Made by a program: the position numbers and the translations under genes
Assembly: GCA_963816145.1 (NCBI GenBank)
Contig: CAWFJP010000001.1
Span: forward strand, 192,001 to 256,000
Direction of reading: 5' to 3'
Source: an uncultured delta proteobacterium
Lineage (GTDB): Bacteria; Desulfobacterota; Binatia; UBA9968
DNA: 64,000 bases
Shown: in pieces, positions 1 through 47,540 of the stretch
How the letters are laid out: every line of letters starts with the position of its first letter
Position numbering within the stretch: the stretch's first letter is position 1
The notes under the pieces: model-generated
What the model was told of the DNA's origin: nothing
Databases searched by the model: none
Seen by the model: only the letters and a program-made list of their open reading frames with translations

Positions 1-574
1 TTGTGAAGAACAACAGGCTTCGGTTCCCCTGGGCTTCCGCAGGAAACATCTGTTTGAAGTCCTCAAAGTGAGGAGCCGAGTTGTAGGGAAACTTTCCTCC
101 ATCGTCGAGAATCACTGTTTCTCCCCCCCAGGCAGGGTCCCAGTCTTGGCTCGTATTAAAGTAAAAAATGTGAGAGCCGAGTTTTCGCCGCGCATCGCAA
201 TGGGGAGAAACAGAGCAACCGCTCGGCGTGTAGTGCCAGTGGAAGAGCAGCTCGAACGAGCGGTTTCCGGTGAGCCGAGAGACAATACTTTGGTAGTCTC
301 CCCCTCTGAGTTCTGCAATGAACTCCTTCCACGGCGGGGCGATATCCAGACCATCATGATATTCAAGAGTGAAACGATCATGGCTCTGCTGTTGATATCG
401 ACGTTCCACTCCAAATTGGGGGCTGAACAGAGTCAGAGGGGGGAGGCTTTCGCGCAGAAGCTGAAATCCCTCTTCTGTCAATATTCCTTGAGGATTAATC
501 CAGGGGTAGGGCTTCTGCGACCGCAATGCGACCGAATCAATAGCCCGGAGCTGTTCCAAGTCAAGATACTTCAT
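1..574 (-). CDS. 2OG-Fe(II) oxygenase family protein (3' end runs off the window; absent from the ORF track)
   Basis: Manual translation from ATG 574 (AAGGA upstream): MKYLDLEQLRAID...FHWHYTPSGCSVSPHCDARRKLGSHIFYFNTSQDWDPAWGGETVILDD...NRSLLFFT, open to position 1. It has the HxD iron ligand motif and the W-x-x-x-W-G-G-E motif. Confidence 0.8.
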   Translation of the reverse strand, partial: MKYLDLEQLRAIDSVALRSQKPYPWINPQGILTEEGFQLLRESLPPLTLFSPQFGVERRYQQQSHDRFTLEYHDGLDIAPPWKEFIAELRGGDYQSIVSRLTGNRSFELLFHWHYTPSGCSVSPHCDARRKLGSHIFYFNTSQDWDPAWGGETVILDDGGKFPYNSAPHFEDFKQMFPAEAQGNRSLLFFT

Positions 575-599
575 CACCGATTCCTTCACTGTTCTACCA

Positions 600-3002
600 T
601 TATTGTGACTTCGGAGCATAGGTCACGGGCACCCCTTGGGATTTTCCCATTCCCATGAGTGTTTGTACCCGCTGAACAATTTCTTCGACTTCTTGGAGTC
701 CTGGAGACTTCGTCATGTCCAAGGGCTCACCGAAAAAACGAGCAATCCCCCGTTGTATCAAGGTTTGGTGTAACACACCGAGGTCCGGCTGCGGCAGGAC
801 GACACCACGCTCGACTAGTCGGGCACACAGATATTCCAGGCCTTGCTGCGGACGCACCGTTCCGCGCACGTTCATTCGCTGTAACGAGGAGCGGGCGACG
901 ATCCATTCTTTCAGTCGGGTCCACCGGTCGAGCTGTTGCTTGGGAAGGGGATAAATATAGACTGGTTTCCCAGTGGCTGCTGCTTCCGCCAGCATCGATT
1001 CGCTTTCTCCGGTCACAATCAGGATGTCTGCTAAAGCCAGGTAGGCGAGATAAGGATTTTCTGATCGATCCGGTTGCCACTCGTACAGATGACAAGAATC
1101 ACCGAGTCCTTTCGTCAATGCCGCCGTGGCTTGTGATCCCGTGCGGCGGCTCGTCGTGGCAAAGACCGCACCTCTCGTGGCTTCAGCGAAGGCACGGACC
1201 TCTACACCTAGACGGTACGCCGTTTCCTCATCGAAACGGCATGCGTACGAGGCCCCCCCCACCAACAGAGCAATACGCGGGCGTGGCGTATTTGCCAATA
1301 AGTCATGCCAGCGCTCGGCAGTCTGCCAGAGTTGTTCCGAAGAGACTTCAGTGAGCGGGACGACGGTTTCGATCCGCCGAGAATGAGGCGGCAAGCGAAA
1401 GTACCGGCAACTAATCGCAAGATCGTACAGATGCGCGACATGGGTGCCTTTGCGCCCCATTTGCACAAGGCGCGTATGATCGTGGCTTTGTTTTTTGATC
1501 CAACGTGCGATGTGGGCAGTACGCCACCCGGTGGTAATAACCAGGTCAGGCCAGGGCCGAGTGAGCACAGCCGACTGCGTTCGTTTGAGACCAAGCTGCG
1601 TTGCGCCGAAGTATCCGAACAGGAAGTCGTGGAGATGTATGCGCCAGGTAAAATGCAGTTCTTTGACTTCGTATGGCCAACCCAAGGCTTTGGCAAGACC
1701 GAGAGACTGTGTGGTGTTTCCCGGGTGATCGTCCGTCAGTACCCACACACTGGGATTGCCGTTAAAGCGGCGGCCTCCTGCGCATGACTGAGTGACTTGT
1801 CGTCCCCAGCGATTGCGCGTATGCACGATGAGCTGCCAGTGTCTCCCTGGGTGACGGCAACTCGCAGCTTCAAGCTGTGCCGCCCACCAGGACTCTGGGC
1901 GCGGGCAATGAGAAACCTGTATTCCGTGACCTGGCACGCTCGTCCGTCTAGCCGTTGTGACGGTTACCGCCACCTTGCGGCGAGCAGAGCGGAACAACTC
2001 ATCAAGGACCCACGGTACATCCTCGTCTGGCAAACAATCCAAGACCTCGGTGGAGACGATGTCGGCAATCGGTTTCTTGGAACGGCCTGTCTCCGACAGC
2101 AAAACAAGGTCATACCAGGAAACGTTTTGCTGCTCAGGCGCCGACAGATGCTCCTTGGCTGGGTGCTCCTCTGGCGTATGCGTGGATTCGTCGGCCTGAC
2201 GAATCTGCGTGCATAACATTTTGTACTCCTGGCTTGGGTGCGCGGCAGTGAAGACTCGATACGCGGCGGCGTCTGCAGCACGCTCCAGGGCAAACCATAC
2301 CTCGCCGGCAGGGTTGTGCTGGTAGGCATAGCGATCCGGCGTTGGCTGCCAGGGTTGCATATGGATGGCGGTGTAATGCAGGAGCTTCGAGTGATGAGGG
2401 ACATATTCTGTATCACGCGCGTGCCACACTGGGTCGAGTCGTCCATACAAGCCAGGTATTGCCCGTGCCTTCCCCTCCATGAAACCTCTGCGCTGGCTTT
2501 GGGCTTCCGCAAGAGTCCATACAGAAGCCATCCGGGCGCAATCGATCAACATGACTGCTGTATCGTGATCGGAGAGGGCCAGAAAACCGTGGTCTCCGAG
2601 ATCCGCATCAAACAATTCTCCCGGATCGCCAAGGTACACTTGATCAACATCGTTATAGATGGCTTTCCCGAATCCGCCGGCAAAATCCGGAATCGCGAGC
2701 CGATAATTGGTGAAGCCCGTGAGCCACCCTCGTCGGTCGAATCCGACTAAATCTTTCATGAGATAAATCTCATAGATCCGGCTCGGGTCGCGGACTTGTT
2801 CGATCGACCAGAAAAAGACCCGCTCGGCGCGATACTGTGCGGGTTCGGTACCGACAAAGATACGGACCGGCGGTTTTGGACTCGGGGCTACACCCTCCCG
2901 TACGCCTAAGACAACACACTCAGGCTGTGCACGTATGCCTGGTGGACGAGCCACTCTACGGGATTTCTCTAGCAAGGCCATCGTGTCTACGTTCGCGGTC
3001 AA
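600..3002 (-). CDS. Multidomain protein: N-terminal GT-A (GT8/CDI-like) glycosyltransferase, partial class I methyltransferase-like segment, C-terminal ELM1/GtrOC1-family domain
   Basis: IFVGTEP...TGFTNYR...AIYNDVDQ (DxD motif); middle STEVLDCLPDEDVPWVLDELF; C-terminal VWVLTDDHPGNTTQSLGLAKALG, PWPDLVI, TTSRRT, NPYLAYLALADILIVTGESESMLAEAAATGKPVY, typical of ELM1. Confidence 0.75.
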   Translation of the reverse strand: MTANVDTMALLEKSRRVARPPGIRAQPECVVLGVREGVAPSPKPPVRIFVGTEPAQYRAERVFFWSIEQVRDPSRIYEIYLMKDLVGFDRRGWLTGFTNYRLAIPDFAGGFGKAIYNDVDQVYLGDPGELFDADLGDHGFLALSDHDTAVMLIDCARMASVWTLAEAQSQRRGFMEGKARAIPGLYGRLDPVWHARDTEYVPHHSKLLHYTAIHMQPWQPTPDRYAYQHNPAGEVWFALERAADAAAYRVFTAAHPSQEYKMLCTQIRQADESTHTPEEHPAKEHLSAPEQQNVSWYDLVLLSETGRSKKPIADIVSTEVLDCLPDEDVPWVLDELFRSARRKVAVTVTTARRTSVPGHGIQVSHCPRPESWWAAQLEAASCRHPGRHWQLIVHTRNRWGRQVTQSCAGGRRFNGNPSVWVLTDDHPGNTTQSLGLAKALGWPYEVKELHFTWRIHLHDFLFGYFGATQLGLKRTQSAVLTRPWPDLVITTGWRTAHIARWIKKQSHDHTRLVQMGRKGTHVAHLYDLAISCRYFRLPPHSRRIETVVPLTEVSSEQLWQTAERWHDLLANTPRPRIALLVGGASYACRFDEETAYRLGVEVRAFAEATRGAVFATTSRRTGSQATAALTKGLGDSCHLYEWQPDRSENPYLAYLALADILIVTGESESMLAEAAATGKPVYIYPLPKQQLDRWTRLKEWIVARSSLQRMNVRGTVRPQQGLEYLCARLVERGVVLPQPDLGVLHQTLIQRGIARFFGEPLDMTKSPGLQEVEEIVQRVQTLMGMGKSQGVPVTYAPKSQ

Positions 3003-3011
3003 ACAGTCGCT

Positions 3012-4493
3012 TCAGGCAACTGTGGCTGGCGCGCTGGCGGGTGGGTGGCGAAATTTTAAAACGGTAAAAAAATACGACGCGCCCAGCGGCCACGCATAGG
3101 CAACCAGCATCCAGAAGAGGACCGATTTGTTGCCGAGGAAGCTTGCGAGAAAAATGTAAAACGTACGAATGTCGCCTTTCGTAAACGGCTGAATTCTCCG
3201 AAACACAGCGAACCAACGGGTCTCCGCCTGCGTTTTCAAAAAGTCGACGCCCATGGCTTGGATGCTCACGTATCCCGCTCGCCGCAAAAAACGACTGTGA
3301 TAAACGACGGCGCTCCCATACCATGCGGCGGTTGCCAACGCGACAACAAGATACCCCAGATCGCGATGCGATTCGCGATAACACGCGATGGTCAAAAATA
3401 CAAACGGAAGCGCGAAGCGCAGGTCGTCAATGAGCATATCGAACCGTGCTCCGGCTTCCGATTCATAATTGCGGATGCGTGCGACCTCACCATCACACCG
3501 GTCTAACACCCCGGCAGAAAACTGCCACACAACGGCAAACACGAGCATTGCCCAGTACTGCGGGATGAGCAGAAAAGCGGAGGCGAAGAGGAATAGGCCG
3601 AGTTCCAGGATGCTAATCGCGTTTGGGCTGAAGCCAAAACGCACAAATAAGAACGTCAAGGGTTTGGAGAGGTGGGAGTTGACCAGTTTGGAAAATTCCC
3701 CACTAATTTCTTTGAAAGCAATACGCCAAAAAAATTCAGTCCGGTCCTCTTGCGATTCTCTTCCAGTAACCGGCAGCCACCAAACATTTTCGACGAACCC
3801 CAGCCTGAGGAGTTGCTGCTTGCGCCAGTGGTGGATCAGATCAGCAACATTGCTCCATGAAAGGTGTTCCAAATGAACGCGATGACAAACAACCACGTCG
3901 GTGCTGAAGACGCCATTGGAGAGGGTGGAAGAGACTTCTACCGGATCAGCAGGTCCGACATCGAAGCTGTTGCTCTGGAAAACGGTTTTATCGAGCGCAA
4001 TCTTGGTAAAGGACTCGGGATGGGCAAAGATCACTTTGAATTTGTCCGGGAATGCACTCTCGAAAGCGACCTTCCCTTCATTTAACCACACATTTTTATA
4101 GACAGCGAGCACCGGTTTTGGTGATGCGGCAAATTGGGCCAGCTGCGCAAAAAATGTCGGATGGACAACTTTATCTGTTTCGAACAGCAAAAAAGACGTA
4201 TCCCATGGTTCGGCGAGACGGGACACTACCTCAGAAAGTGTCTCACCGGTACGGATCGGACAAATATCAAAATCCAGCGCAAGTCGGGTTCGTGCCTTCC
4301 CGATTAGCGCAACAATCGTTTCACGGTCTTCCTCATGACTAACGATCCCTACGGATCGTATCCCTGCCTTTGACAGAGCAACCAGAGCGCGGGTCAACAG
4401 GGGTTCCCCACCGTACACCGCGTCATACGTTGCCTTGGTAGGTGCCGTATTCAGAGCCAAAAGAACGACCTTTGTGATGCCTGCCACTGCCAT
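3012..4493 (-). CDS. CDP-alcohol phosphatidyltransferase with an N-terminal nucleotidyltransferase-like domain
   Basis: Signature D-G-x2-A-R-x8-G-x3-D-x3-D (DGEVARIRNYESEAGARFDMLID); N-terminal YGGEPLLTRALVALSKAGI resembles NTP-transferase folds. Confidence 0.8.
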   Translation of the reverse strand: MAVAGITKVVLLALNTAPTKATYDAVYGGEPLLTRALVALSKAGIRSVGIVSHEEDRETIVALIGKARTRLALDFDICPIRTGETLSEVVSRLAEPWDTSFLLFETDKVVHPTFFAQLAQFAASPKPVLAVYKNVWLNEGKVAFESAFPDKFKVIFAHPESFTKIALDKTVFQSNSFDVGPADPVEVSSTLSNGVFSTDVVVCHRVHLEHLSWSNVADLIHHWRKQQLLRLGFVENVWWLPVTGRESQEDRTEFFWRIAFKEISGEFSKLVNSHLSKPLTFLFVRFGFSPNAISILELGLFLFASAFLLIPQYWAMLVFAVVWQFSAGVLDRCDGEVARIRNYESEAGARFDMLIDDLRFALPFVFLTIACYRESHRDLGYLVVALATAAWYGSAVVYHSRFLRRAGYVSIQAMGVDFLKTQAETRWFAVFRRIQPFTKGDIRTFYIFLASFLGNKSVLFWMLVAYAWPLGASYFFTVLKFRHPPASAPATVA

Positions 4494-4513
4494 CCGCGAA
4501 ACGCTCCGTTATG

Positions 4514-5245
4514 TCACACTAGTTTTCTTGAAACGCCAGGTCGATAAGATTGCGGCCGCAAGGGATTCCCTTTGGGAGGATCTTGAATATTAAGTTCTCT
4601 CATCCTTAAAAAGGTAAATCCCAGGAAATAGAGAAAAAAGGCTATGGCAATACACAACACGATAGCGTCAAAAGAGAAAATGCTTACGCTACCCAGATTA
4701 ATCAACGGATTGGTGCCGAAATAGAATATGGCGTTCACGCCGAGAAGAAACACGCGAACTTCTGTGGGGCCGATTTTGCCGTAAGAAATTTTGTACACTC
4801 CGGATACGGCGGTGTTGATATTCGTTAAAACCCCAAGGTGCAAATAACCGACGAGCGCTAGAAGCGCGAAGTTGAAGTGGACAAACGGAGATAATCCCAG
4901 GCCGAGAAAAAATATGGTTTGCGTTGTGATATCAACAGTATGATCGACGAAATAACCGTATTGGAATCGTTCGATTTTGCGGTATCGTGCCAATGAGCCA
5001 TCGAGACTATCTCCGAACCAATTGATCAGAAGGCCAAGATCAACGATCCATAGAAAATTTTTATTCGCATTGCACAACCAGAACCCAATCGCCATGACTA
5101 CCCCGCCAATCAAGCCAACCCCAGTGAGTATGTCGGGAGTCATCCAGGCAGGCATGTGTTTACATAGCCACTGCAACGCAGTTCGTTCCAGCGGCGCGAG
5201 GAAAGTGTCGTTGACACGAACGTCGGCTGTCTTGGAGGTATCCAT
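4514..5245 (-). CDS. CDP-alcohol phosphatidyltransferase family protein
   Basis: TPDILT motif and GDSLDGSLARYRKIERFQYGYFVDHTVD signature; several TM segments. Confidence 0.88.
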   Translation of the reverse strand: MDTSKTADVRVNDTFLAPLERTALQWLCKHMPAWMTPDILTGVGLIGGVVMAIGFWLCNANKNFLWIVDLGLLINWFGDSLDGSLARYRKIERFQYGYFVDHTVDITTQTIFFLGLGLSPFVHFNFALLALVGYLHLGVLTNINTAVSGVYKISYGKIGPTEVRVFLLGVNAIFYFGTNPLINLGSVSIFSFDAIVLCIAIAFFLYFLGFTFLRMRELNIQDPPKGNPLRPQSYRPGVSRKLV

Positions 5246-5311
5246 CAGCGTTCTCTTTTATCACAAAATCGAGTAACTCAAGCTGTTTTTCTTGCAACCG
5301 CAGTTCGCTAC

Positions 5312-6451
5312 TCAGACTGCTTTTTCATAAATACGGTAGCGTTTATACGGGATGCCACCGATCATCGTGAGCATATTCCGCATCGGCATGTTATCTTCCA
5401 GAATCCAGGACAGTTCAACTTCCTGAACTCCGCGCCTGATTCCATAGCCGCGCACGGCATCGATAAGCAGGAACCCCAGCGCGGCTCCAAGCGGGCTTCG
5501 CTGAAAACGTTTGCGCACTCCCATCAGGACAACGCGAGCCGTTTTCGGAGATTTCACTTTCAGCCGCCACAAGAGCTTGAGCCAGCCAAATGGAAGCAAA
5601 CGTCCCTGCAGGTCTCGTATCACTTCATTTAAGTTCGGCAAGGCTACGATCATCGCGGCCGGCACGCCGTCCACTTCCGCTATTTGCACGGCATCGTCAT
5701 CGACTAGCAGTCGCAAGCTGTAGCCTAGATGCCGAACCTCGTCTTTGCTGAATGGAATGAATCCCCAGTTGGTAGACCAGGCATCCTCGAAAATGTCCTT
5801 AATAATTTCGAGGTCCTCATTTAACCGTGATCTGCGCAGTGGCCTGACCCGCGCGCGGCCAGCGGCTTTGTTCATAACGGCCTTCATGATCTCGGGGGGG
5901 GTGAATTGGGCGGAGAGACGATAGGCCAGCAAGTCTTTTACGCCCTGGTATCCCTCGGCTGTCAGCCGAGCGGCATAGTACGGGCGGGAGTGGCCCATCA
6001 TAATCATTGGGGGGGTGTCGTAACCGTCCACAAGAAGCCCGCACTCCTGGTTGATGGAAAAGTTGAACGGGCCGCGAACTCGCAACATGCCCTGGTCACG
6101 CAGCCAGCCTTCAGCCGTGCTCAACAGTTCGTGAAACGTCCCCGCCTCATTCTCGGCCTCGAGGAACCCAAAAAAACCGGTGGCATCCCGATACCTCTCT
6201 TCGTGCAATTCATCAATTTGGGCGCTGATCCGACCGACTGGCCTGCTCCCGCGGTAGGCAAGCCAAAAACAGCAGCGCGCGTGCGTGAAGTATGGGTTGC
6301 GGGGAGAAAAGTGCTCGCGTCGCTCTAGCAACAAATGCGGGACCCATGTTGGGTCGTCGGCATAGACCGACCAAGGCACGCGAATGAACCGGCGCATGTC
6401 GCGGGAGTTACGTACCGGCACGATTCTTATCGATTCGACAGCGGGACGCAC
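5312..6451 (-). CDS. GNAT-family N-acyltransferase, YghO / bacterial ceramide synthase (bCerS)-like
   Basis: 379 aa; GRISAQID, GFFGFLEA, RGPFNFSINQECGLLVDG, PPMIMMGH, AWSTNWGFIP and ELSWILEDNMPM are characteristic of the YghO/bCerS family. Confidence 0.8.
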   Translation of the reverse strand: MRPAVESIRIVPVRNSRDMRRFIRVPWSVYADDPTWVPHLLLERREHFSPRNPYFTHARCCFWLAYRGSRPVGRISAQIDELHEERYRDATGFFGFLEAENEAGTFHELLSTAEGWLRDQGMLRVRGPFNFSINQECGLLVDGYDTPPMIMMGHSRPYYAARLTAEGYQGVKDLLAYRLSAQFTPPEIMKAVMNKAAGRARVRPLRRSRLNEDLEIIKDIFEDAWSTNWGFIPFSKDEVRHLGYSLRLLVDDDAVQIAEVDGVPAAMIVALPNLNEVIRDLQGRLLPFGWLKLLWRLKVKSPKTARVVLMGVRKRFQRSPLGAALGFLLIDAVRGYGIRRGVQEVELSWILEDNMPMRNMLTMIGGIPYKRYRIYEKAV

Positions 6452-6797
6452 GGCAGGAGCTTACTCGCCGGAACCCGAGCCGGCAAGCGCTGAGACGCAA
6501 CCGGGACTACAACCCACAGCTCCTTCCGATCGGCGAAATTACAACCTCCACATCCTCTAAATTTTTTTCTTGTAACATCGTTTTCATCTTCGTTCAAGTA
6601 AACCTGGTAAACGATAAACCACGTAACGTCCCAATTTTGGGCGGCGACGCTGGAAATATTGAGACAGACGCATCCCAATTCCACTCAGTGGTCATAATAG
6701 ATTTACGTCAGATATCCTCGCGCTCATTAGGCACACAATGTCTCGCCCCATCGATAATTCGACAGTGCCCTTTGTTTAGAAATCGCGCGTCGTGCCG

Positions 6798-6815
6798 TTG
6801 ACGGACAACCGTCAA
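6798..6815. promoter_or_regulatory. Perfect palindrome TTGACGG-N4-CCGTCAA, candidate operator in a divergent promoter region
   Basis: Sequence ttgacggacaaccgtcaa, 34 nt upstream of the 6850 ORF; the left arm resembles a -35 box. Confidence 0.35.
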
Positions 6816-6849
6816 ATGTGTCAAAACTGCCGACAGGCTCACAAATAGT

Positions 6850-7845
6850 TTGTCCGAGATGAAGCATCGTTTTTCCTTCAAGAAATTTCTCTATTACCGA
6901 ACAGGGGAATATTGCCTAAGGGCAATTATCTTCCTCGTTCCGAGGATCCCGCAACGCCTGATCGTCCTCATCACGGCGGCGACCGTCCGACTAACTTTCG
7001 CTATTTTATGGTCATACCGAAAACTGATGGAAGTGAACGTCTCCATGGCCTTGAGCGACGAATCCTTACCGGTGGAGACGAGAAAGAGCGTGGCTCGTAC
7101 GACCTGGAGGAATTTTGTCCAGGGACTTTATGAGACTGCCTGCACCCTTTATACCTCCAGGGACGCGATATGTGCCAGCGTTGCTATTGAGGGCGAGGAG
7201 TATTTGAAGCGGGCTTTGGAAAAGGGCAACGGAGTGATCGCTCTCGGCCCTCATTTAGGAAATTTTACTATGATTGGTCCCCGTCTTGCCGCGGCCGAAT
7301 ACCCCGCCAGCATTTTAGTCAAGCAACCACCAGACGAAAGATTATCCCGCTTGCTTGACAGCTACAGAGCGAAGGCTGGGGTAAAAACGATATCGGCTAA
7401 GCCGCGCAGGCAGGCGGCCCGACAAATCCTTGGCGCATTAAGGCGGAACGAAGTGGTTATTATCCTCCCGGATGCGTTTAAATCTGGAAAAGTAAACACG
7501 CAGTTTTTGGGTGCCCCTGTCTATATTCGCCGTGGTCCCGTGACCCTGGCTTTACGCGCGGGCGCGGCGGTTCTTCCTATGTGTGTCACGCGCGACGCTG
7601 AGGATCGTCTGACCCTTCGTATCAGCCCTGAAATCGATCTCGTCAAGACAGGAGACCTGCAGCAGGATGTTGCTGCAAATCTCGCCCTGTTTACTCGTCA
7701 TTTGGAAGACATGGTGCGGCTGTATCCCGATCAGTGGTGTCGGCTTTCAGCGCAAGGAACGGAAAGCAATAATGTCCGGCCGATGTTTTCTGATTTTGTG
7801 CAGCCGGCAGTCGAACTGAAAGAGGTTAAAGAACGCCGCTCATGA
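6850..7845 (+). CDS. Lysophospholipid / lipid A late (LpxL-like) acyltransferase
   Basis: GEEYLKRALEKGNGVIALGPHLGNF, LRRNEVV, LEDMVRLYPDQW. Confidence 0.8.
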   Translation: MSEMKHRFSFKKFLYYRTGEYCLRAIIFLVPRIPQRLIVLITAATVRLTFAILWSYRKLMEVNVSMALSDESLPVETRKSVARTTWRNFVQGLYETACTLYTSRDAICASVAIEGEEYLKRALEKGNGVIALGPHLGNFTMIGPRLAAAEYPASILVKQPPDERLSRLLDSYRAKAGVKTISAKPRRQAARQILGALRRNEVVIILPDAFKSGKVNTQFLGAPVYIRRGPVTLALRAGAAVLPMCVTRDAEDRLTLRISPEIDLVKTGDLQQDVAANLALFTRHLEDMVRLYPDQWCRLSAQGTESNNVRPMFSDFVQPAVELKEVKERRS

Positions 7846-8054
7846 AGCGTTCCGCTTCCTAGGATTGCTTCACCATCAACGAACAGCCTGAGCAGTTTCA
7901 CACCCAAGGCCGCAAAGACATTATAAAGCGTTATCCCCAGGTGAAGGTATTGTTTGGCCCTTATCCTCTGTCAGCCCTCCTCATTGTCGGGCTGGTCGCT
8001 CTGCAATGGACAGTGGCCTGGCTGCTTTGCGATCAGCCGTGGTACGTGATTTAG
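7842..8054 (+). pseudogene. Truncated sphingolipid delta-4 desaturase (DEGS1/Lipid_DES-like) N-terminal fragment
   Basis: ATGA overlap with the upstream stop; reads MKRSAS*DCFTINEQPEQFHTQGRKDIIKRYPQVKVLFGPYPLSALLIVGLVALQWTVAWLLCDQPWYVI*, matching the H-x2-R-R-x2-I-L-x2-Y-P-E-I-K-x-L pattern followed by a TM helix. Confidence 0.65.
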
Positions 8055-8122
8055 CCCGGATTGCCACGCTGACGCCGTTTGGAACCAACCCTGGAAGCGC
8101 GGCCAAGTTTGCGTTGGTAACG

Positions 8123-9523
8123 TCAGCCCTGGGATGGCCTTGACTCTGAGGTGGCGGCGTCATAACGGCTCGGCGGTATGCACCGGCTTTCGAGAACGAG
8201 TTTAAACGCCCCGTGAGGTCCGAACGGAAAGCTTTGTTGCCGGCGGGGCCGAACCGCCGTGGCCGCATGGATGCTGAAGCGGCAATGGCGCAGCAGAGCC
8301 GCCAGGACCACTTTCATTTCGTAAAAAGCGAACGTTGCGCCCAGACAACGATGCGTCCCGCCGCCAAATGGCACGAATTCAAAAGGTGAATACTTGCGTT
8401 GGAGGAAGCGCTGGGGTTGGAACTCACCCGCCGCTGGATAGAGGTCCTCACGCATATGGACCAAGCTGGCGATCGACGCCACGCCATAGCCCGCCGGCAA
8501 CGAGTAGCCCAGAAATTGGAAGGGGCGGCGCAACAAGCGCGGCACCTCGGGCAATATCGGGCTCAATCGCAAGGTCTCGTTGCACACGGCATCCAGGTAA
8601 GGCAACGTCATAAGTTGCTTGAATTCGGCATCGTCTTCCACCGTCGCCAACTCGTCACATAAGTGCGCAAGCACTTCTGGGTGACGGTGCAACCAATAGA
8701 GCGCCCATGCCAACGCGCTTGCGAGCGTTTCGTGTCCGGCGGCCACGAGTGACACCAGCTGGTCGCGAATTTCCAAGTCGCTCAATCCGCTTCCATCTTC
8801 GTGCCGAACACTGAGCAGCAAGCCGAGAATGTCATCCTCGGAAGACGTGTGGCGAGCCTCGGCGATCAAGCTATAGACCGTGTCATCGAGCTGTTTCATG
8901 GCGCGGCAAAATTTCGCCCAAGGTCCGAATCCACCGAACTGATGCCGCAACATCGAAACAAATGTAATGGCGGGACTGGTGGTCTGTTGCACTGCGTGAA
9001 GAGAGGTTCTCAAGAGTGCCTTGCGATGTTCTTTGGCACCGAAAAAGACGCGCAAAATGATCTCGAAAGAGAGGGCTTGCATCGCTTCCTGGGCGACAAA
9101 CGGCTGCCCCATGGGCCACCCGGCCGCCGCCTCGGTGGCGATCGCCTGCATGGTCGAAGAAAACTGGACTACCTGACGGCCATGGAAACGAGGCATGAGC
9201 AGACGGCGCATGCGCAGGTGCGATACGCCGTTGGAGAGCATGAGAGACGAAGCCCCGAGAAACGGTTGCACGCTGGATTGGGCAAAAATGTCGAAAGTAT
9301 CGGGGTCGGCAGCAAAGATGGTTTCAATGCCCTCTGGCCGGCCCGTCACCACGAGAGGGCCAAACGGGGTGGGCATGAGAAACGGGTCGCCATAGAGACG
9401 CACGCAGCGGGCATAGAACCCACATGGGTCGCGCAAATAGCGAGCCACAACCAGCGGCATCCAACGCGGCCCTGGGGGAAAGCGGTCCACCACCTGCTCC
9501 CGATCACGAGATATGGCTGTCAT
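8123..9523 (-). CDS. Cytochrome P450
   Basis: AGHET (I-helix), ETLR (ExxR), FQPQRF, heme motif FGGGTHRCLG. Confidence 0.95.
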   Translation of the reverse strand: MTAISRDREQVVDRFPPGPRWMPLVVARYLRDPCGFYARCVRLYGDPFLMPTPFGPLVVTGRPEGIETIFAADPDTFDIFAQSSVQPFLGASSLMLSNGVSHLRMRRLLMPRFHGRQVVQFSSTMQAIATEAAAGWPMGQPFVAQEAMQALSFEIILRVFFGAKEHRKALLRTSLHAVQQTTSPAITFVSMLRHQFGGFGPWAKFCRAMKQLDDTVYSLIAEARHTSSEDDILGLLLSVRHEDGSGLSDLEIRDQLVSLVAAGHETLASALAWALYWLHRHPEVLAHLCDELATVEDDAEFKQLMTLPYLDAVCNETLRLSPILPEVPRLLRRPFQFLGYSLPAGYGVASIASLVHMREDLYPAAGEFQPQRFLQRKYSPFEFVPFGGGTHRCLGATFAFYEMKVVLAALLRHCRFSIHAATAVRPRRQQSFPFGPHGAFKLVLESRCIPPSRYDAATSESRPSQG

Positions 9524-9821
9524 GGAGAGCCCAGCGGTTTACCGCGAGCATGCCTATCGCCACGCACCGATACCGTGATGATGGACACTTTAGCAACGTT
9601 ACTGGATACGATCTGGACAGGGCTTGTCATCGCTTTTCTACTGCCGCTCCCAACCTTTTTTCTCAAGGGAGCAGAGCATGCACGGACCGGGTCGATACCT
9701 GCCAGACGCTACCGAAGAGATTCCCGACGTCAACGACCTTGCTGCACCGAAAGTTGTTTGCGATCCTAACCAAAAGTAGACTCCATGTCCACACGCCGTT
9801 GCCCACGGAGAAACGCCGCGC

Positions 9822-9988
9822 ATGAACTGGGCCCGGCTGCTCAAACGGGTCTTCGACATCGACATCGAACACTGCCCGAACTGCGGCCGCAGCTTGAAGA
9901 TCTTGCCGCGATCGAAGATCCGCCGGCGATCGACAAGATCCTCAGCCATCTGGGCCTACCGACCCGCGCCCCGCCGCGCTTCCCGGCT
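9822..9988 (+). pseudogene. IS91-family transposase C-terminal remnant, frameshifted
   Basis: MNWARLLKRVFDIDIEHCPNCGRSLKI, then a frameshift near 9903, then AAIEDPPAIDKILSHLGLPTRAPPR; the typical IS91-type C-terminal zinc-ribbon tail. Confidence 0.8.
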
Positions 9989-10322
9989 AACTCTTCAAAG
10001 GTTTTCCCTGCGCTCTCCATCGTCAGCTTCTCTATTATCGCATCAATAGCTCGTAACCGACCTCTCGCCATCGCTCGGCTTCCTGTGCCCGGCGCACCTG
10101 CGCTAAATGTACCACTGCTCCCAGACAGACTCTCCCATCGGTGATTTTTGGTTCGAGTCCTGAGCAGGCAGAGAATCCCTGCTTCTCCAAAGCCCCTTGC
10201 CAGCTCTTCCTCACTCCTGGGAGCTCAGGGCCTGCTAAAAACAGGTATTGTTTCCCACGATCAGCGGGGCGCTGTGTGTGTAATTCCGTATAGGCATTCC
10301 TGTTTATGCTGGTGGAATCTGT

Positions 10323-11333
10323 CTAACTCGGTTCTTTTCGGCTCGGAGACGGGACGACAATCGCCGCAGACGCACGCTCTAGACCGCACTTTGGCTCGGT
10401 CAGCCAATGGCTCAGATCGCGCTGCAGCAGATTGGAGAGCTTGGTCACGTCCTCCGCAAGCGTGTCTCGCAGCATCTGCTTGACGTCGGGAGCCAGAGGT
10501 GTTGGGCGCGTGCTAATCGTGTTCCACCGCGCCAACCGTTCCAGCCTAGATTTTTTACCGGTGGCTTTCTTCTTCTGGTCCATCTTCCAGATCAGGTCTA
10601 AGGTATCGACCACATGCGCCTTGCTCGCCAGAGGGGCGTAGAGCAACCTCTGTAGCCAATGATAGCGGTAGATACGGCTCCCGAGCTTCCGCTGAAATTT
10701 CGTTCTGCCGTCGTACTCAACCCCTATAAACTGAAGCACGTGTTTGTACACCGTCAGTGGGTCGCGCACGAGGTCGTCGAGGAGGAGAACAAGGCAGCGG
10801 TCGCGCCCGGCGAGTTGATAGAGGCGCTCGATCTGCAGTCCAAAGCTGGCGACCTCACGGTACATCAGTAGTTGGGGGGCAAAGCAGTGTTTGGGAATCC
10901 GCTCGCCTCGTGCTCTCATTTCCTGCAAACTCCAGGCGGTGGCAAAGTCCTCTACATCTTCCATGAAGGTGAAGCGCATCCGCAAATGATACGAGGCAAG
11001 CATGTCCAGCGGATTACGTAAGATGGCAATGAACCTGGCCTGTGGGTTGAGGCTCAAAATTCGCCGTAGGGCATCGGGAGAGTAGAGGTAAGAAACAGAC
11101 CCCTCTCCGATCGCCTTATGACTTTCCCGATAGTGAGAAAAGTAACGCGCCAAGTAGGCGGTCTCTAAGTCGTCGAGCGAGGCGCGCGACGCGAACAACG
11201 AGAAATAGTGTGGCTCCTTAGGCCGCGAGAAGCACACCTGCGGGTTATTTGCGAGGTAGTTGCTCAACGAAGTCGTGCCGCACCGCGGTGCCCCGATGAG
11301 GAAAAAATCCGGAAAACGCTCTGGCTTTGTCAA
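10323..11333 (-). CDS. PAPS-dependent sulfotransferase
   Basis: 5'-PSB PDFFLIGAPRCGTTSL, KEPHYF, GEGSVSY, 3'-PB ILRNPLD. Likely TTG start at 11333 with GGAGG RBS (ORF track starts at 11369). Confidence 0.9.
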   Translation of the reverse strand: MTKPERFPDFFLIGAPRCGTTSLSNYLANNPQVCFSRPKEPHYFSLFASRASLDDLETAYLARYFSHYRESHKAIGEGSVSYLYSPDALRRILSLNPQARFIAILRNPLDMLASYHLRMRFTFMEDVEDFATAWSLQEMRARGERIPKHCFAPQLLMYREVASFGLQIERLYQLAGRDRCLVLLLDDLVRDPLTVYKHVLQFIGVEYDGRTKFQRKLGSRIYRYHWLQRLLYAPLASKAHVVDTLDLIWKMDQKKKATGKKSRLERLARWNTISTRPTPLAPDVKQMLRDTLAEDVTKLSNLLQRDLSHWLTEPKCGLERASAAIVVPSPSRKEPS

Positions 11334-11775
11334 GATGTTCCCTCCGCTAGTAATGCTGTCCAAATGCATAATAGATGTAGGACGTGCGCAGCGCGCCCCC
11401 CCCGGTGGGTACTCCGCGCCCTAAAAAGCTGCCCACCGCCTCGTCGTTCACCGCCTGTTTCAATTCAGCTCGCTCGGAGGCGGCGGGCCAAAATTTTGCT
11501 TGTGGTGTAATCTACCGCACTGCGCTGTTCAGCGCTACCCCGACGAACGGGCCATGATCGTTGTGAAGTCTGCCCGGCTCTCGAACTCCGAATAAAAACT
11601 GCCGATCTTACTGTTCTTGCTCAGATGTATGAACCGTGGCGGTTGCCACGGAGATCAGCCCAATCCAAGTGGCGCCCACTATGTCTCATGTGCATGGGTT
11701 CGGGCGCTTCGGAGCGACGGGCGCCGTCGACGCGGGTGCCGGGATTCCTTGCTCCTTCCGCCGGAATCCGAGATA

Positions 11776-12570
11776 ATGCGAGGCATGCTTGACGTGGCGT
11801 CGGTGACGAGCACCGTATGTGAACTCTTCGGGATTCCCAGACCGGCCGATTGCGTCGCGCCCCCATTCAGCGAGGTCGCTGCATTCGCGGCGCGTCGAAC
11901 CGTGACGAAGGCACTCGTGTTCGCAGCCGACGCGATCGGTGCGCACATGGTCCGCTCATACGCTGAGGCCTTTGAGCCGGTCGCGCGCCACGCACCAACA
12001 TCGGTTGAAGCTTGCGCCGTGATGCCCTCGGTCACACCCGTCTGCTTCGCATCGATGTTCACGGGCGCCCCTCCGGACACCCATGGCATCCGCAAGTCCG
12101 AAAAGCCGACGCTGACCTGCGACACCCTCTTCGACGCGCTCTCGCGGGCTGGCCACCGTGTCGCCATAGTGGCCGTGAAGAACTCCTCAATCGATCTGAT
12201 CTTCCGGAATCGGAGGATTGACTACTTCACCGAGACCTACGACGAGGAGGTGGTTGAGCGGACGCTCAACCTCGTCGCAGCGAACCAGCATGACTTCATT
12301 CTGGCTTACCAGCAGGAGTACGACGACAAGATGCACGCCACGTTACCACGGAGTCCAGAGGCGCTGCGCGCGATGGCCAACCACGTACGCAACTTCGATC
12401 GGGTCGCTCGCGCGGCACGCGAAAGGTGGGCTACCATGTCACACACCGTTGCATTCGTGTCAGATCACGGCACGCACATCGATCCATCGACGGGGCGTGG
12501 GACGCACGGCAGCAACCTGGCGGACGACCTCGAGGTGCGTCTCTTCTGGGGAGTTCACTTCCCGGTCTAA
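11776..12570 (+). CDS. Alkaline phosphatase superfamily protein (nucleotide pyrophosphatase/phosphodiesterase-like)
   Basis: VFAADAIG, PSVTPVCFASMFTGAPPDTHGI, D-x3-H (DDKMH), SDHG and HG metal ligands. Confidence 0.85.
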   Translation: MRGMLDVASVTSTVCELFGIPRPADCVAPPFSEVAAFAARRTVTKALVFAADAIGAHMVRSYAEAFEPVARHAPTSVEACAVMPSVTPVCFASMFTGAPPDTHGIRKSEKPTLTCDTLFDALSRAGHRVAIVAVKNSSIDLIFRNRRIDYFTETYDEEVVERTLNLVAANQHDFILAYQQEYDDKMHATLPRSPEALRAMANHVRNFDRVARAARERWATMSHTVAFVSDHGTHIDPSTGRGTHGSNLADDLEVRLFWGVHFPV

Positions 12571-12673: not shown

Positions 12674-12680
12674 GTGCTAG

Positions 12681-14262
12681 GAGTTTGCGCCGCAGAAAAA
12701 TATTCTTGTCTCTGATTCGCAAGGGCGTATAAGGAAAAGAAATGTTGCGCTGAGTGTGAGGTGGAGATGTCGACATCTTTTCTTCCCTACGAGCCGAATC
12801 AGACATTTTTGCTACCGCCCTCGCCGTCGGAGTGGTTGGCCGAAGATCATCTGGTGTATTTCGTCAGCGAGATCATCGATCGGTTGGAGTTGGGGAAGTT
12901 TTATGCCCGCTACGAAGGAGACGGGCGGCGAAACCAGCCGTACGATCCAGCGCTGTTGGTCAAGGTGTTGGTGTACGGGTATGCCACCCGAGTCTTCTCT
13001 TCGCGCCAGCTGGCGCGAAAGCTTTACGAGGACGTAGGGTTTCGGGTCTTGGGAGCAGGCAATTTTCCATCGCACCGAACGATCTGTGAATTTCGGATGA
13101 GGCATTTGCCAGAGCTTAAAGAGTTGTTTGTCGCGGTGGCGCGGCTGGCCAAAGAGATGGGATTGGTCAAGCTTGGGACGGTGGCGTTGGATGGGACCAA
13201 AGTCAAAGCGCAGGCGAGCAAGCACAAAGCGATGAGCTACGGGCGGATGAAGGAACAAGAACAAAAGCTTAAAGCGGAGATCGAAGCGCTGTTGGAGCGA
13301 GCGCAACAGACCGACGTTCAAGAGGACGCACAATGGGGAGCGGATCAGAGCGAAGAGCCGCTGCCCCAGGAGCTCAAAAGACGGCAAGATCGTTTGGCCA
13401 AGATTGAAGCGGCCAAGCAACGCTTGGAAGAGCGCCAAGCTCAAGCCGATCGGGAGCGGGGGCGCCATCCCGATGATGAGCAGCGCCGAGGGGATGGAGC
13501 CGGGCGGCCGTTCAAGCGGCCCTTCGGGGTACCCCAGGACAAAGCGCAGGATAACTTCACCGATCCCCAGTCGCGCATCATGAAGATGGGCGGGAGTTTT
13601 GAACAGTGCTACAACGCGCAGGTGGTGGTCGATGGTGACAGTCAGCTGATCGTGGCGATTGGGCTGGGCAACAACGCGGCGGACAACGAGCAATTGGTGC
13701 CGATGGTGGAAGCGGTTAAGGAGAATCTCGGCCTTCTGCCCAAACGAGTGTTGGGCGATGCGGGTTTTCGCTCCGAAGATGGCTTTGCGAAACTGGCAAC
13801 GCAAAATTATGAGGGGATGGAAGTGTTGGTGGCGTTGGGGCGGGAGGGAAAAGATCAAGCGGCGATTGATCCCAAGCTGTATCCCGCTACGGTGCGCATG
13901 GCCGAGCGGCTGGCCAGCAAAGAAGGTCAAGCGCACTATCGGCGGCGCAAAGCGATCGTGGAGCCGGTATTTGGTTGGATCAAGCATGCGATGGGGTTTC
14001 GTCAATTCAGTTTACGAGGGATCGACAAAGTCGCGGGCGAGTGGGGCTTGGTGTGTCTGGCGCTCAACCTGCGACGCATGTGGGCGCTCCAATTCTAAAT
14101 ATCCACGGCTTGCTGAGGTGTCATAGGCATGCGCGACGCCATTTTTGAGTTGGTTGTGGTTCGCGCTGCACCAAGCGGTTAACCGAGAGGTAAAATCTTG
14201 CTCTGCTGTTGCTGCCATCACATCCGGCCTGCTAAAAACGATCGTTTCTGCAGCGCAAACTC
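12681..14262 (+). mobile_element. IS1182-family insertion sequence with 18-bp terminal inverted repeats and flanking CTAG
   Basis: Left end GAGTTTGCGCCGCAGAAA; right end (reverse complement) GAGTTTGCGCTGCAGAAA, one mismatch. CTAG at 12677-12680 and 14263-14266. Confidence 0.9.
12767..14098 (+). CDS. IS1182-family DDE transposase
   Basis: DUF772-like N-terminus (LLPPSPSEWLAEDHL, YDPALLVKVLVYGY, SSR), ALDGTK, TDPQSRIMK, YNAQ, DAGF, RRKAIVEPVFGWIK. Confidence 0.93.
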   Translation: MSTSFLPYEPNQTFLLPPSPSEWLAEDHLVYFVSEIIDRLELGKFYARYEGDGRRNQPYDPALLVKVLVYGYATRVFSSRQLARKLYEDVGFRVLGAGNFPSHRTICEFRMRHLPELKELFVAVARLAKEMGLVKLGTVALDGTKVKAQASKHKAMSYGRMKEQEQKLKAEIEALLERAQQTDVQEDAQWGADQSEEPLPQELKRRQDRLAKIEAAKQRLEERQAQADRERGRHPDDEQRRGDGAGRPFKRPFGVPQDKAQDNFTDPQSRIMKMGGSFEQCYNAQVVVDGDSQLIVAIGLGNNAADNEQLVPMVEAVKENLGLLPKRVLGDAGFRSEDGFAKLATQNYEGMEVLVALGREGKDQAAIDPKLYPATVRMAERLASKEGQAHYRRRKAIVEPVFGWIKHAMGFRQFSLRGIDKVAGEWGLVCLALNLRRMWALQF

Positions 14263-14319
14263 CTAGGGCAAAATAACTGGGCATGTCAAGGTGAATTGCT
14301 GCACTCGCGCTATGAAGAC

Positions 14320-35635: not shown

Positions 35636-35637
35636 CG

Positions 35638-47413: not shown

Positions 47414-47540
47414 AGAAAACACACCGCCGCGCAGCGCGACCGATCGATATAAAAACTGGGCGCGCAGCTGAGCCGAATCCGAACCGTCAGCAGCGCTCCT
47501 GATTGAGCCGGGCTGTGGTTGGGTCTAGAGCGCCAAACCT

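Follow-up and report, generated by a model that had tools for sequence, protein, structure and literature searches.

A probable ceramide lipid locus with a new head-group module in an uncultured member of the Binatia

A 64,000-nucleotide stretch of DNA from an uncultured member of the Binatia (Desulfobacterota), hereafter referred to as the window, was analyzed together with the sequence adjoining it on the left. The genome under study, G000, is a 7.82-Mb assembly of 31 contigs that is 99.5% complete, and the window is G000:C1:192001-256000; positions given without a contig are those of the window. Labels of the form G0xx denote other genomes, L0xx and L1xx denote loci or contigs compared, and C1 and the like denote contigs. 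A sphingolipid locus of ~31 kb was found at G000:C1:173742-204570, and the window shows its right-hand third. We consider it highly probable that the genes of this locus make a complex ceramide lipid, furnish it with a head group and export it to the outer membrane, where it would exist besides ordinary lipopolysaccharide (LPS). Judged from gene content, the product is probably a new LPS-like sphingolipid. The ceramide core and the Lpt export pair are known biology, and the head-group module is new. An earlier sequence-only reading of the window had proposed a locus for a modified ceramide; homology and synteny support this main claim, the part it gave to a cytochrome P450 did not stand, and the product itself is something we infer.

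The ceramide core and its candidate synthase

The sequence-only reading had noted that serine palmitoyltransferase (Spt), acyl carrier protein (ACP) and the reductase CerR are not encoded in the window and had taken the pathway to be incomplete. The former is correct and the latter is not, because the core genes lie just left of the window, and the leftward search proposed for Spt and CerR found both on the same contig. Genes for Spt, ACP, an acyl-AMP ligase and a CerR-like reductase are located 12.6-18 kb left of the window; spt, acpR, aasR and cerR all fall within G000:C1:173742-179421, 18-24 kb from the gene of the GNAT protein described below. The gene order in this core region on C1 is MarR, fatty acyl-AMP ligase (FAAL), SDR/epimerase, WaaZ-like transferase, ACP and Spt. 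The spt gene (G000:C1:178240-179421, 12.6 kb left of the window start) is directly preceded by the gene of an 82-aa ACP, whose stop abuts spt. Spt scores 633.8 bits with model NF047599 (cut-off 500) and stays below the cut-offs of the rival models BioF (331.5 bits, cut-off 426) and Kbl (297.6 bits, cut-off 460). The FAAL matches NF006624 with 753 bits (cut-off 600), and clear family matches were obtained for the CerR-like SDR/epimerase and, further along the locus, for an MsbA-like ABC exporter, LptF and LptG. At the level of homology and gene order, an AasR-type ligase, an AcpR-type ACP, Spt, a CerR-like reductase and a CerS/YghO-type acyltransferase are shown to make up the predicted five-gene bacterial dihydroceramide pathway.

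The candidate ceramide synthase (CerS/bCerS) is a 379-aa GNAT of the YghO family encoded at 5312-6451 on the minus strand, the first gene of its operon. It is 47% identical to E. coli K-12 YghO over 368 aligned positions, that is, over the full length (E 6e-128), and has a weak Acetyltransf_1 match in Pfam; a PDB sequence search gave no match at E <= 1. Passages of PMC9386255 identify yghO (ECD_02850) of E. coli BL21 as the counterpart of Caulobacter CC_1154, and the link between the GNAT and CC_1154 runs via YghO and these passages, not via a direct Caulobacter sequence. The family is large, with 7000 representatives at E <= 0.001 and 1220 at E <= 1e-30. In a quick maximum-likelihood tree of 83 sequences, in which the long-branch G005 row serves as an outlier only, the GNAT falls into a 30-row clade (SH-aLRT support 99%) with E. 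coli YghO and members from Pseudomonas, Azorhizophilus and Nitrosomonas. Within this clade it pairs with two sequences from metagenome-assembled genomes of Nitrospirota (support 97).

The genomic context of the family was assessed in 80 GNAT-centred loci from a one-genome-per-species scan, in which partners were identified by tblastn with G000 proteins. Of the 80 locus rows in the tree, 43 are linked to Spt and 5 lack it despite full flanks; for 31, the locus is too short for a decision. Among the 38 loci with full 10-kb flanks, the 10 kb around the GNAT homologue hold Spt in 33 cases, ACP in 29, a CerR-like gene in 26, FAAL in 22, the nucleotidyltransferase described below in 14 and LptG2 in 13. 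The proposal that the GNAT is of bCerS type is borne out by its place in the CerS/YghO clade, its identity to YghO and the presence of Spt nearby, and it is supported as a candidate bacterial ceramide synthase of this group. Three outcomes had been named beforehand as refuting the proposal, namely absence of Spt, a GNAT outside the clade and an LPS or capsule context; each was tested and none occurred.

Natural fusions of the CerS/YghO domain were also observed, to a fatty-acid hydroxylase (P0137), to an AMP-binding acyl-AMP ligase domain (P0221) and as a tandem duplicate (P0125). In E. coli 2011C_3361 (L173), yghO adjoins genes annotated in RefSeq as fatty acyl-AMP ligase, NAD-dependent epimerase, ACP, spt, lptG and lptF. 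In K-12, yghO directly abuts IS5, followed by yghQ (L172, 3129043-3131340); from this arrangement, K-12 seems to have lost the ceramide genes at IS5.

Between the core operon and the window, the 20-kb left stretch encodes, in this order, the MsbA-like ABC exporter, a 410-aa Elm1 protein, an SGNH protein, a fatty-acid desaturase/hydroxylase, LptG and LptF, and then a 262-aa nucleotidyltransferase, a second SGNH protein and a GT2 gene. The 410-aa protein matches Mito_fiss_Elm1 (PF06258) with 207.5 bits (cut-off 27). The 262-aa nucleotidyltransferase begins with 'AGYGSRLRP', has an intact GxGxR-type loop ('GYGSRL') and matches sugar- and inositol-phosphate nucleotidyltransferase models below their cut-offs. 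An open reading frame (ORF) in the same stretch, orf188 (G000:C1:182706-183272), is probably no gene; it has no family match and was found in 0 of 145 loci. G000 carries two LptF/G pairs, one in the locus and a higher-scoring one on contig C4. LpxC is present, so lipid A is made too, and together with the second pair on C4 this means that the locus adds to normal LPS and does not replace it. APS kinase genes, for the supply of 3'-phosphoadenosine 5'-phosphosulfate, are present as well. The WaaZ-like gene of the core operon (G000:C1:176839-177807, between cerR and acpR), similar to the family of transferases of a third 3-deoxy-D-manno-octulosonic acid (Kdo) residue, matches TIGR04437 with 93.7 bits, below the cut-off of 200. 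It was found in 0 of 80 genome loci and 0 of 65 metagenome loci and may, for this reason, be a G000-specific addition to the spt operon.

The head-group module and its possible product

The left end of the window is occupied by the tightly packed minus-strand operon that the sequence-only reading had described, and each of its genes was found in place. The operon comprises six genes, with neighbours spaced -20 to 75 nt by ORF coordinates. The GNAT gene is followed by a gene for a membrane cytidine diphosphate (CDP)-alcohol phosphotransferase of 243 aa (4514-5245, minus strand; CDP-OH_P_transf E 4.9e-6), a fusion of a nucleotidyltransferase fold with a CDP-alcohol phosphotransferase, 493 aa long (3012-4493, minus; CDP-OH_P_transf E 2e-9), and a three-part putative glycosyltransferase of 800 aa (600-3002, minus; Mito_fiss_Elm1 E 4e-59). 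The fifth gene resembles 2-oxoglutarate (2OG)-Fe(II) oxygenases; its 5' part occupies 1-619 on the minus strand (ORF from 2), and the whole 253-aa ORF is G000:C1:191858-192619. The GT2 gene then follows left of the window. On the other side, a 398-bp divergent intergenic region (6452-6849), where promoters are presumed from the gene layout, separates the GNAT operon from an acyltransferase gene.

Conservation of this arrangement was examined in 65 metagenome loci found with the fusion family, partners again being identified by tblastn with G000 proteins. Many contigs are only 1-5 kb long, so the counts are lower bounds. The small CDP-OH gene was found in 50 loci, where it adjoins the fusion gene, the Elm1 fusion in 40, the GNAT in 23, the 262-aa nucleotidyltransferase in 15, the 2OG gene in 14, an LpxL-like acyltransferase gene divergent from the GNAT gene also in 14, GT2 in 13, LptF2 in 11 and a phosphodiesterase in 7; the 37 loci counted for the 410-aa Elm1 protein are inflated by cross-matches to the Elm1 domain of the 800-aa fusion. 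The conserved order begins with the LpxL-like gene, from which diverge the genes for GNAT, CDP-OH 243, fusion 493 and Elm1 fusion 800. Depending on the contig, it continues with 2OG, the second Elm1 or GT2, and then with the nucleotidyltransferase gene, from which diverge LptF2, LptG2 and desaturase/hydroxylase. The full order recurs in contigs 81-95% identical to G000, and long contigs keep the G000 order. The trio of CDP-OH 243, fusion 493 and Elm1 fusion is kept down to 59-65% identity; L142 combines it with Spt-like and CerR-like genes, and L133 carries a 77%-identical GNAT. Clusters of module proteins at 90% identity hold up to 1025 member sequences among those listed. The proposed gene-neighbourhood check on these 65 loci thus placed the head-group clusters with sphingolipid genes and not in ordinary LPS or capsule loci.

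The loci centred on the GNAT in named genomes have a different module: neither CDP-OH gene was found in any of the 80, nor was the acyltransferase or the sulfotransferase. A Pseudomonas locus, L045, carries a Caulobacter-type set of a MobA-like nucleotidyltransferase, a 432-aa CDP-OH protein and a metallophosphoesterase, and also a 943-aa Elm1 fusion. The picture suggested by these comparisons is that of a constant ceramide core with interchangeable head-group modules. No description of the G000 module was found in a search of the full-text literature, outside which subscription-only papers lie, and passages of PMC11324152, PMC9246714 and PMC10411912 do not describe a module of this type. The same search found no literature joining ELM1 glycosyltransferases with serine palmitoyltransferase, or Nitrospira sphingolipids with Spt. 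The enzyme combination that the sequence-only reading did not recognise is therefore undescribed in the literature searched and distinct from the Caulobacter set.

Both CDP-OH enzymes retain the catalytic motif. In the 243-aa protein, which matches CDP-OH_P_transf with 27.5 bits (cut-off 22) and, weakly, models of archaetidylinositol-phosphate and phosphatidylinositol phosphate synthases, it was recognised by eye as DSLDGSLAR...G...D...D, with nine, not eight, residues between R and G. The 493-aa fusion has 157 relatives at E <= 1e-5, nearly all ~490 aa long. Its CDP-OH_P_transf domain lies in the C-terminal half, and the motif D331-x2-D-G-x2-A-R-x8-G-x3-D-x3-D356 is invariant in 27 aligned sequences. 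The family profile matches AF2299 (4o6m, E 1.6e-13) and IPCT-DIPPS (4mnd, E 4.7e-12) in the PDB; the score with the IPCT-DIPPS equivalog NF041135 is 56.9 bits, below the cut-off of 580. An AlphaFold model of the fusion (pLDDT 83.6) has a nucleotidyltransferase fold in the N-terminal half and helices in residues 248-480. The best Foldseek match of the model, over both domains, is A. fulgidus IPCT-DIPPS (4mnd, E 6.9e-13), and the next matches of the N-terminal domain are RmlA-type enzymes and the T. maritima inositol-1-phosphate cytidylyltransferase 4jd0. The assignment of this protein as a nucleotidyltransferase/CDP-alcohol transferase fusion holds as to fold, by the 4mnd match, and fails as to the active loop, which is absent. 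Three tandem paralogues of the fusion (424, 492 and 472 aa) were observed at L146:8636-12903, on a metagenome contig of low G+C content (0.45).

The 800-aa protein matches Mito_fiss_Elm1 (PF06258) at residues 427-705 with 200.6 bits (cut-off 27). Its layout is a GT8-like N-terminus with a DxD motif ('NDVDQ'), a weakly methyltransferase-like middle and a C-terminus of the Elm1/GtrOC1-type GT-B class. GT8 (PF01501) scores 17.1 bits, with a cut-off of 24.3. Among 24 aligned relatives, Elm1 was detected in all 24, GT8 below cut-off in 6 (best E 0.0022) and methyltransferase families, likewise below cut-off, in 5, 3, 2 and 1. The residues N117-D-V-D120 are invariant in the family, a match to WbbM was obtained at E 0.065, and in the Atlas residues 25-275 are nearest to GT8 clusters (score 0.97); the N-terminus is probably GT8-like on this basis. 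Its region has 1638 homologues, and Elm1 is present in 120 of 120 among the matches listed. In a structural model with a mean pLDDT of 60.6, the Elm1 part resembles GT-B enzymes, MurG and UGTs among them, and the N-terminal ~300 residues are too poor for a GT8 fold to be judged. The 253-aa 2OG-like protein has a weak match to 2OG-FeII_Oxy_3 (E 0.0017, below cut-off) and an HxD...H motif recognised by eye; a 60%-identical homologue in L142 matches at E 2.5e-5, likewise below cut-off.

A scheme for the product can be proposed from these assignments. The 262-aa nucleotidyltransferase would activate an alcohol phosphate to an NDP- or CDP-alcohol, and the two CDP-alcohol phosphotransferases would move phospho-alcohol units, in a Kennedy-type reaction, onto the 1-hydroxyl of ceramide or onto the growing head group. 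One of the two may act on ceramide and the other add a second unit, as is the case for DIPPS and for the second phosphoglycerate of ceramide phosphoglycerate (CPG) in the form CPG2. This step would replace the ceramide kinase route of Caulobacter. No match to DAGK_cat above cut-off was found in the 99.5%-complete G000 (best 21.6 bits, cut-off 23.6, on contig C11), and for this reason the phosphate would most simply enter as a phospho-alcohol from the CDP-alcohol. Candidate donor alcohols are of glycerol, glycerate or ethanolamine type. Since no myo-inositol-phosphate synthase (MIPS) was found, the alcohol is not inositol made de novo. A product of the inositol phosphoceramide or glycosyl inositol phosphoceramide kind was considered and set aside on the lack of MIPS; it is a minor possibility that would need inositol uptake. 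Sugars would be added by the GT8-like/Elm1 fusion, the second Elm1 protein, GT2 and the WaaZ-like ulosonic-acid transferase. Decoration could involve the LpxL/PatA-like acyltransferase, the 2OG oxygenase, the fatty-acid desaturase/hydroxylase, the two SGNH proteins and the sulfotransferase. The ABC exporter is predicted to flip the product and LptF2G2 to pass it to the Lpt bridge. A more specific version, a ceramide-anchored LPS analogue whose route would be new to bacteria, is put forward tentatively as one possibility. It would combine a kinase-free Kennedy step, a second phospho-alcohol added by the IPCT-DIPPS-like enzyme, GT8/Elm1 and Kdo-type glycosylation, an extra acyl chain from the LpxL/PatA-like enzyme and a private MsbA-like/LptF2G2 export route, all carried by a tmRNA-targeting cassette among soil lineages.

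Several observations weigh against ceramide head-group synthesis by this module. The chemistry of the product and every catalytic role finer than family are predictions, and the GT8 and methyltransferase assignments are made from sub-cut-off matches. The N-terminal domain of the fusion reads 'LLALNTAP' where GxGxR, which we take to be the loop of active nucleotidyltransferases, is expected; this domain may be non-catalytic and serve for binding or scaffolding. Among characterised proteins, those closest to the two CDP-OH enzymes act on inositol phosphate, and MIPS (PF07994) has no match in G000. The surroundings of the L146 fusion relative (45% identity) are those of a polysaccharide-type locus, with flippases of the Polysacc_synt family, a DegT aminotransferase, GT4 enzymes and a methyltransferase. 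No Spt or GNAT was found within 10 kb of it, and the wider fusion family is therefore not ceramide-specific; it is possible that in G000, too, a glycan and not ceramide is the acceptor. The acyltransferase is of lipid A or phosphatidylinositol mannoside (PIM) type. In the 93%-complete assembly of G043, which alone among the relatives in the genus has the module, no close Spt was found (best 37% identity); this genome may hold the module without ceramide synthesis, as a partial copy, or its assembly may be incomplete or broken.

These points bear on an alternative in which only the GNAT serves ceramide and the other operon genes modify the LPS core, lipid A or another glycan, for instance with phospho-alcohol substituents and further sugars, as parts of a shared envelope regulon. 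Passages of PMC10327509 describe the Elm1-family GtrOC1 as the one gene common to 22 of 22 lipooligosaccharide outer-core loci of Acinetobacter, and the tandem fusion relatives of L146 without Spt as well as the module of G043 would fit such a role. So would the matches of the acyltransferase to lipid A late acyltransferase models, the WaaZ-like Kdo transferase match and the fact that G000 makes lipid A and has a KdsB-family gene (for CMP-Kdo). We nevertheless regard this alternative as unlikely. A ceramide synthase gene heads the module, at the close spacings given above, and the order of GNAT, CDP-OH, fusion and Elm1 fusion is kept in metagenome contigs that are long enough. The conserved set includes a sphingolipid-specific Lipid_DES desaturase (L096, L121) and a dedicated LptF2G2 pair, and the 80 GNAT loci, many of them proteobacterial, carry other head-group genes, as would fit a variable module on a constant core. 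Assignment of the module to a ceramide lipid is preferred on these grounds.

The right-hand edge of the locus and its acquisition

The LpxL/PatA-family acyltransferase gene (6850-7845, plus strand; Lip_A_acyltrans E 2.5e-29) and a delta-4-desaturase fragment stand divergent from the operon, as had been proposed. All NCBIfam matches of the acyltransferase are below cut-off and include lysophospholipid, lipid A lauroyl and PIM acyltransferases. Its residues 132-142 read 'GPHLGNFTMIG', a string that a pattern search alone did not find in two homologues; in this family, the His is followed at a short distance by an acidic residue. The sphingolipid delta-4-desaturase gene (7863-8051, plus) is truncated to its N-terminal 63 codons and matches Lipid_DES (PF08557) at E 1.7e-6 with 27.8 bits, above the cut-off of 23. 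The fragment stops just before 'HEATH', the first His box of intact homologues. Since it covers only the Lipid_DES part, FA_desaturase (PF00487) was not detected in it even at E 10, and tblastn with the locus's own fatty-acid desaturase missed it. Intact genes with Lipid_DES and FA_desaturase domains (339 and 323 aa) are found at the same position in L096 and L121. In G000, the place of the missing desaturase part is taken by the segment with the P450 and the IS91 remnant described below. Because the sphingoid delta-4-desaturase is destroyed in G000, the strain is expected to make a saturated or otherwise unmodified long-chain base.

The presence of a P450 gene and a sulfotransferase gene beyond the fragment was confirmed by Pfam. 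The P450 (8123-9523, minus; p450 E 9e-65) was detected neither in the 65 metagenome loci nor in the 80 genome loci. Beside it, at 9780-10046 (plus), lies a remnant of ~34 codons of the C-terminus of an IS91-family transposase, detected by tblastn against plasmids; its residues 9-42 share 53% identity with annotated transposases of this family (E 6e-5), and it has no Pfam match. G043 matches G000 at 90-95% nucleotide identity over C1:192891-200056 and 203668-204573, and the segment between them, G000:C1:200057-203667 with P450, IS91 remnant and sulfotransferase, has no counterpart in 40 kb of G043. The P450, which the sequence-only reading had counted among the pathway genes, arrived with the IS91 remnant and cut the desaturase; we read it, from this comparison, as a passenger of the mobile-element event and not as a pathway member. 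The sulfotransferase (10323-11369, minus; Sulfotransfer_3 E 2e-14) was found in 2 of 65 metagenome loci. In L096 it stands at 88% identity beside the intact desaturase and so belongs to some versions of the locus, and a different sulfotransferase-like gene is present in L142; it is, by this distribution, a putative accessory member of some related clusters. The locus edge is formed by a phosphodiesterase-like gene of the alkaline phosphatase superfamily (11617-12570, plus; Phosphodiest E 6.5e-10, Sulfatase E 6.5e-5), which has 95% nucleotide identity in G043 and L151.

With these interruptions, the locus might also be a passenger in decay, its genes no longer expressed as a pathway. The truncated desaturase, the IS91 remnant, insertion sequence (IS) copies of the IS1182 family on both sides and the retention of only part of the set by G043 on the stretch compared would be consistent with it. 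Against this stand the full-length open frames of all locus genes except the desaturase, as seen in the ORF lists, the intact catalytic motifs and the 81-95% identity of module proteins to many metagenome copies of equal length, as under purifying selection, and we consider decay very improbable.

The IS1182-family element at 12677-14266 (plus) matches NF033551 (transpos_IS1182) with 373 bits (cut-off 270). Three copies of 1590 bp are present in the genome, with 99.8-100% identity and ~19-bp terminal inverted repeats, and no target-site duplications were found at any of the three. Two of them, the second being an inverted twin at G000:C1:160562-162151, bracket 42.5 kb that hold the locus (C1:162152-204676). 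The tmRNA gene (14606-14958, minus, 3' end towards the locus; identified by ARAGORN, tag ADDFEYQLAA) lies 340 bp beyond the right IS copy and is followed by smpB (15147-15623, minus; SmpB Pfam match) and housekeeping genes including the dcw cluster.

The locus has a patchy distribution. Among 41 genomes of the genus and order, Spt above cut-off was detected in G000 only, and GNAT homologues are present in 2 of the 40 others (24 genomes from the genus and 16 from its order), with identities of 34% and 23%. A fusion orthologue was found in 1 of 30 other species of the genus, G043 (89% identity), and in 0 of 400 other genomes of the phylum at E <= 1e-40. At G043:C1:156396-167088, with 90-95% nucleotide identity, that relative still has the genes for the phosphodiesterase, the acyltransferase, the GNAT and the Elm1 fusion as well as both CDP-OH genes; the Spt operon, LptF2G2 and GT2 were not found in 40 kb of this genome. 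The metagenome contig L151 has the order smpB, tmRNA, phosphodiesterase, acyltransferase and GNAT operon, the same site as in G000. Its locus genes are 90-95% identical to those of G000 at the nucleotide level, compared to 73% for smpB and 85.5% for the tmRNA gene; a locus more conserved than its flank is the pattern expected for a transferred cassette.

Other results speak against an island. No integrase family was found among the ORFs scanned against Pfam, and a search for an attachment (att) repeat of the tmRNA 3' end gave only a 12-nt chance repeat. The G+C content shows no shift (0.572 in the locus, 0.564 in the genome), and a dip to 0.505 at 4001-6000 is no larger than other dips in the profile. 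The G043 copy of the locus lies on a different contig from the G043 tmRNA. Of the earlier description of the locus as island-borne, the tmRNA site, the IS flanks and the patchy spread stand, and integrase, att repeats and deviant composition are missing. On balance, the locus at the tmRNA site was probably acquired horizontally.

In another genome of the genus, G014, a 39-nt copy of the tmRNA 3' end (95% identity) is present at C12:425843-425881, 10 kb from the tmRNA gene (C12:415360-415715). As a sequence feature it looks like the att scar of another island, and by this repeat the tmRNA site is used by other elements in the genus. Further into the window, three features of the dcw cluster were noted. 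At 39164-40568 (minus), the Mur_ligase_M and Mur_ligase_C domains of the expected murF lie in overlapping ORFs in different frames (39693-40568 and 39164-39907), an arrangement that a frameshift, a fault in the assembly or the picking of ORFs may have produced. The 712-aa ORF at 34568-36706 (minus) has MurG (GT28) domains only at residues 360-701, and its first 359 residues have no Pfam match at E <= 1e-5; FtsW is expected at this position of a dcw cluster. A 142-aa RNase H-like (RVT_3) gene is found at 46994-47422 (minus), just past mraZ at the cluster end.

Comparison with known systems and significance

In Caulobacter, passages of Olea-Ozuna 2024 (PMC11324152) and Zik 2022 (PMC9393093) assign the synthesis and transport of ceramide and CPG/CPG2 to the cluster CC_1152-CC_1168. 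According to passages of PMC11324152, the same core with LptC2/F2/G2 occurs in Caulobacter, Azotobacter, Pseudomonas and Nitrosomonas, and the architecture of core, Lpt and flippase genes is contiguous in Azotobacter vinelandii and Pseudomonas luteola. The G000 locus shares with Caulobacter the five-gene ceramide core, a second LptF/LptG pair, a flippase-type exporter, a stand-alone nucleotidyltransferase and a head-group enzyme of the CDP-alcohol transferase family. It differs in having two different CDP-OH enzymes, one of them fused to an IPCT-like domain, in adding the GT8-like/Elm1 fusion, the second Elm1, GT2 and the WaaZ-like transferase on the one hand and the LpxL-like acyltransferase, the Lipid_DES desaturase and the sulfotransferase on the other, and in carrying an ABC exporter in place of the Wzx-type CC_1166; LptC2 was not seen in G000.

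Could the locus make CPG or CPG2 of the Caulobacter type with diverged CpgA-C? The shared aasR, cerR, acpR, spt, cerS and LptF2G2 are compatible with this, as is the stand-alone nucleotidyltransferase beside LptF2, found likewise in Azorhizophilus and Pseudomonas clusters, and passages of PMC9393093 and PMC11324152 give CpgA/CC_1159 a CDP-alcohol transferase domain, too. The CPG route was nevertheless rejected, and we give it hardly any weight. No ceramide kinase was found in G000, as DAGK_cat has no candidate above cut-off. Both G000 CDP-OH proteins resemble the 432-aa Pseudomonas protein, taken as CpgA type by position, around the motif only (E 7e-4 and 5e-5). Neither a Metallophos (CC_1158-type) nor a MobA/CofC-like (CC_1153-type) gene is present among the scanned locus ORFs, whereas L045 has both, and at least four glycosyltransferase-type genes are without counterpart in the Caulobacter 17-gene cluster as described. 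The preferred assignment remains a ceramide lipid with a head group of a different make.

The E. coli B/non-K-12 cluster yghO-aasR-cerR-acpR-spt-lptG-lptF (passages of PMC9386255; RefSeq) has the same neighbours as the G000 core, that is, FAAL, epimerase, ACP, spt and a second lptFG. As annotated, it has no CDP-OH/Elm1 module, and in G000 genes for export and tailoring separate the spt operon from the cerS operon, over a distance of 16 kb. Like the G000 fusion, IPCT-DIPPS (A. fulgidus 4mnd; AF2299 4o6m) joins a cytoplasmic nucleotidyltransferase fold to a six-helix CDP-alcohol phosphotransferase, and DxxDGxxAR...G...D...D is complete. The fusion is only ~15% identical to it, lacks the GxGxR loop, comes from a genome in which no inositol-phosphate synthase was found, and lies in a lipid operon and not in a compatible-solute context. 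Acinetobacter Elm1/GtrOC1 (passages of PMC10327509) is, like the G000 protein, a Mito_fiss_Elm1 member (GT-B clan) in an outer-membrane glycolipid locus. In G000 this domain is fused behind GT8-like and methyltransferase-like parts and linked to ceramide, not lipid A, genes; its function is putative in both.

A putative alternative inositol-lipid cluster of Bacteroides vulgatus and Prevotella, described in passages of Heaver 2022 (PMC9246714), consists of an NTP transferase, a CDP-alcohol phosphatidyltransferase and a HAD protein. The proposed logic is of Kennedy type in both cases, with a CDP-alcohol used on a lipid and a phosphosphingolipid as the end product, and is putative in both. Theirs is anchored in MIPS via PI-DAG (phosphatidylinositol-diacylglycerol), whereas MIPS and HAD genes are absent from the G000 locus, where the module is linked to cerS and to glycosyltransferases.

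The ceramide phosphoethanolamine synthase of Drosophila, an enzyme of the eukaryotic Golgi, belongs to the CDP-alcohol phosphotransferase family and uses ceramide as acceptor. It offers a precedent for the CDP-alcohol:ceramide step proposed here. Bacterial sphingolipids stand in for or reinforce lipid A in the Caulobacter outer membrane, and to our knowledge the chemistry of their head groups has been worked out in very few organisms. In the G000 locus, a well-defined ceramide core and an Lpt pair of its own are combined with a head-group module that is undescribed in the literature searched and frequent in soil metagenomes. GNATs of the E. coli YghO type reliably mark loci of this kind. The genes described here are candidates for a kinase-independent route to phosphosphingolipids, for a first function of bacterial Elm1-family proteins and for the horizontal spread of an outer-membrane lipid class.

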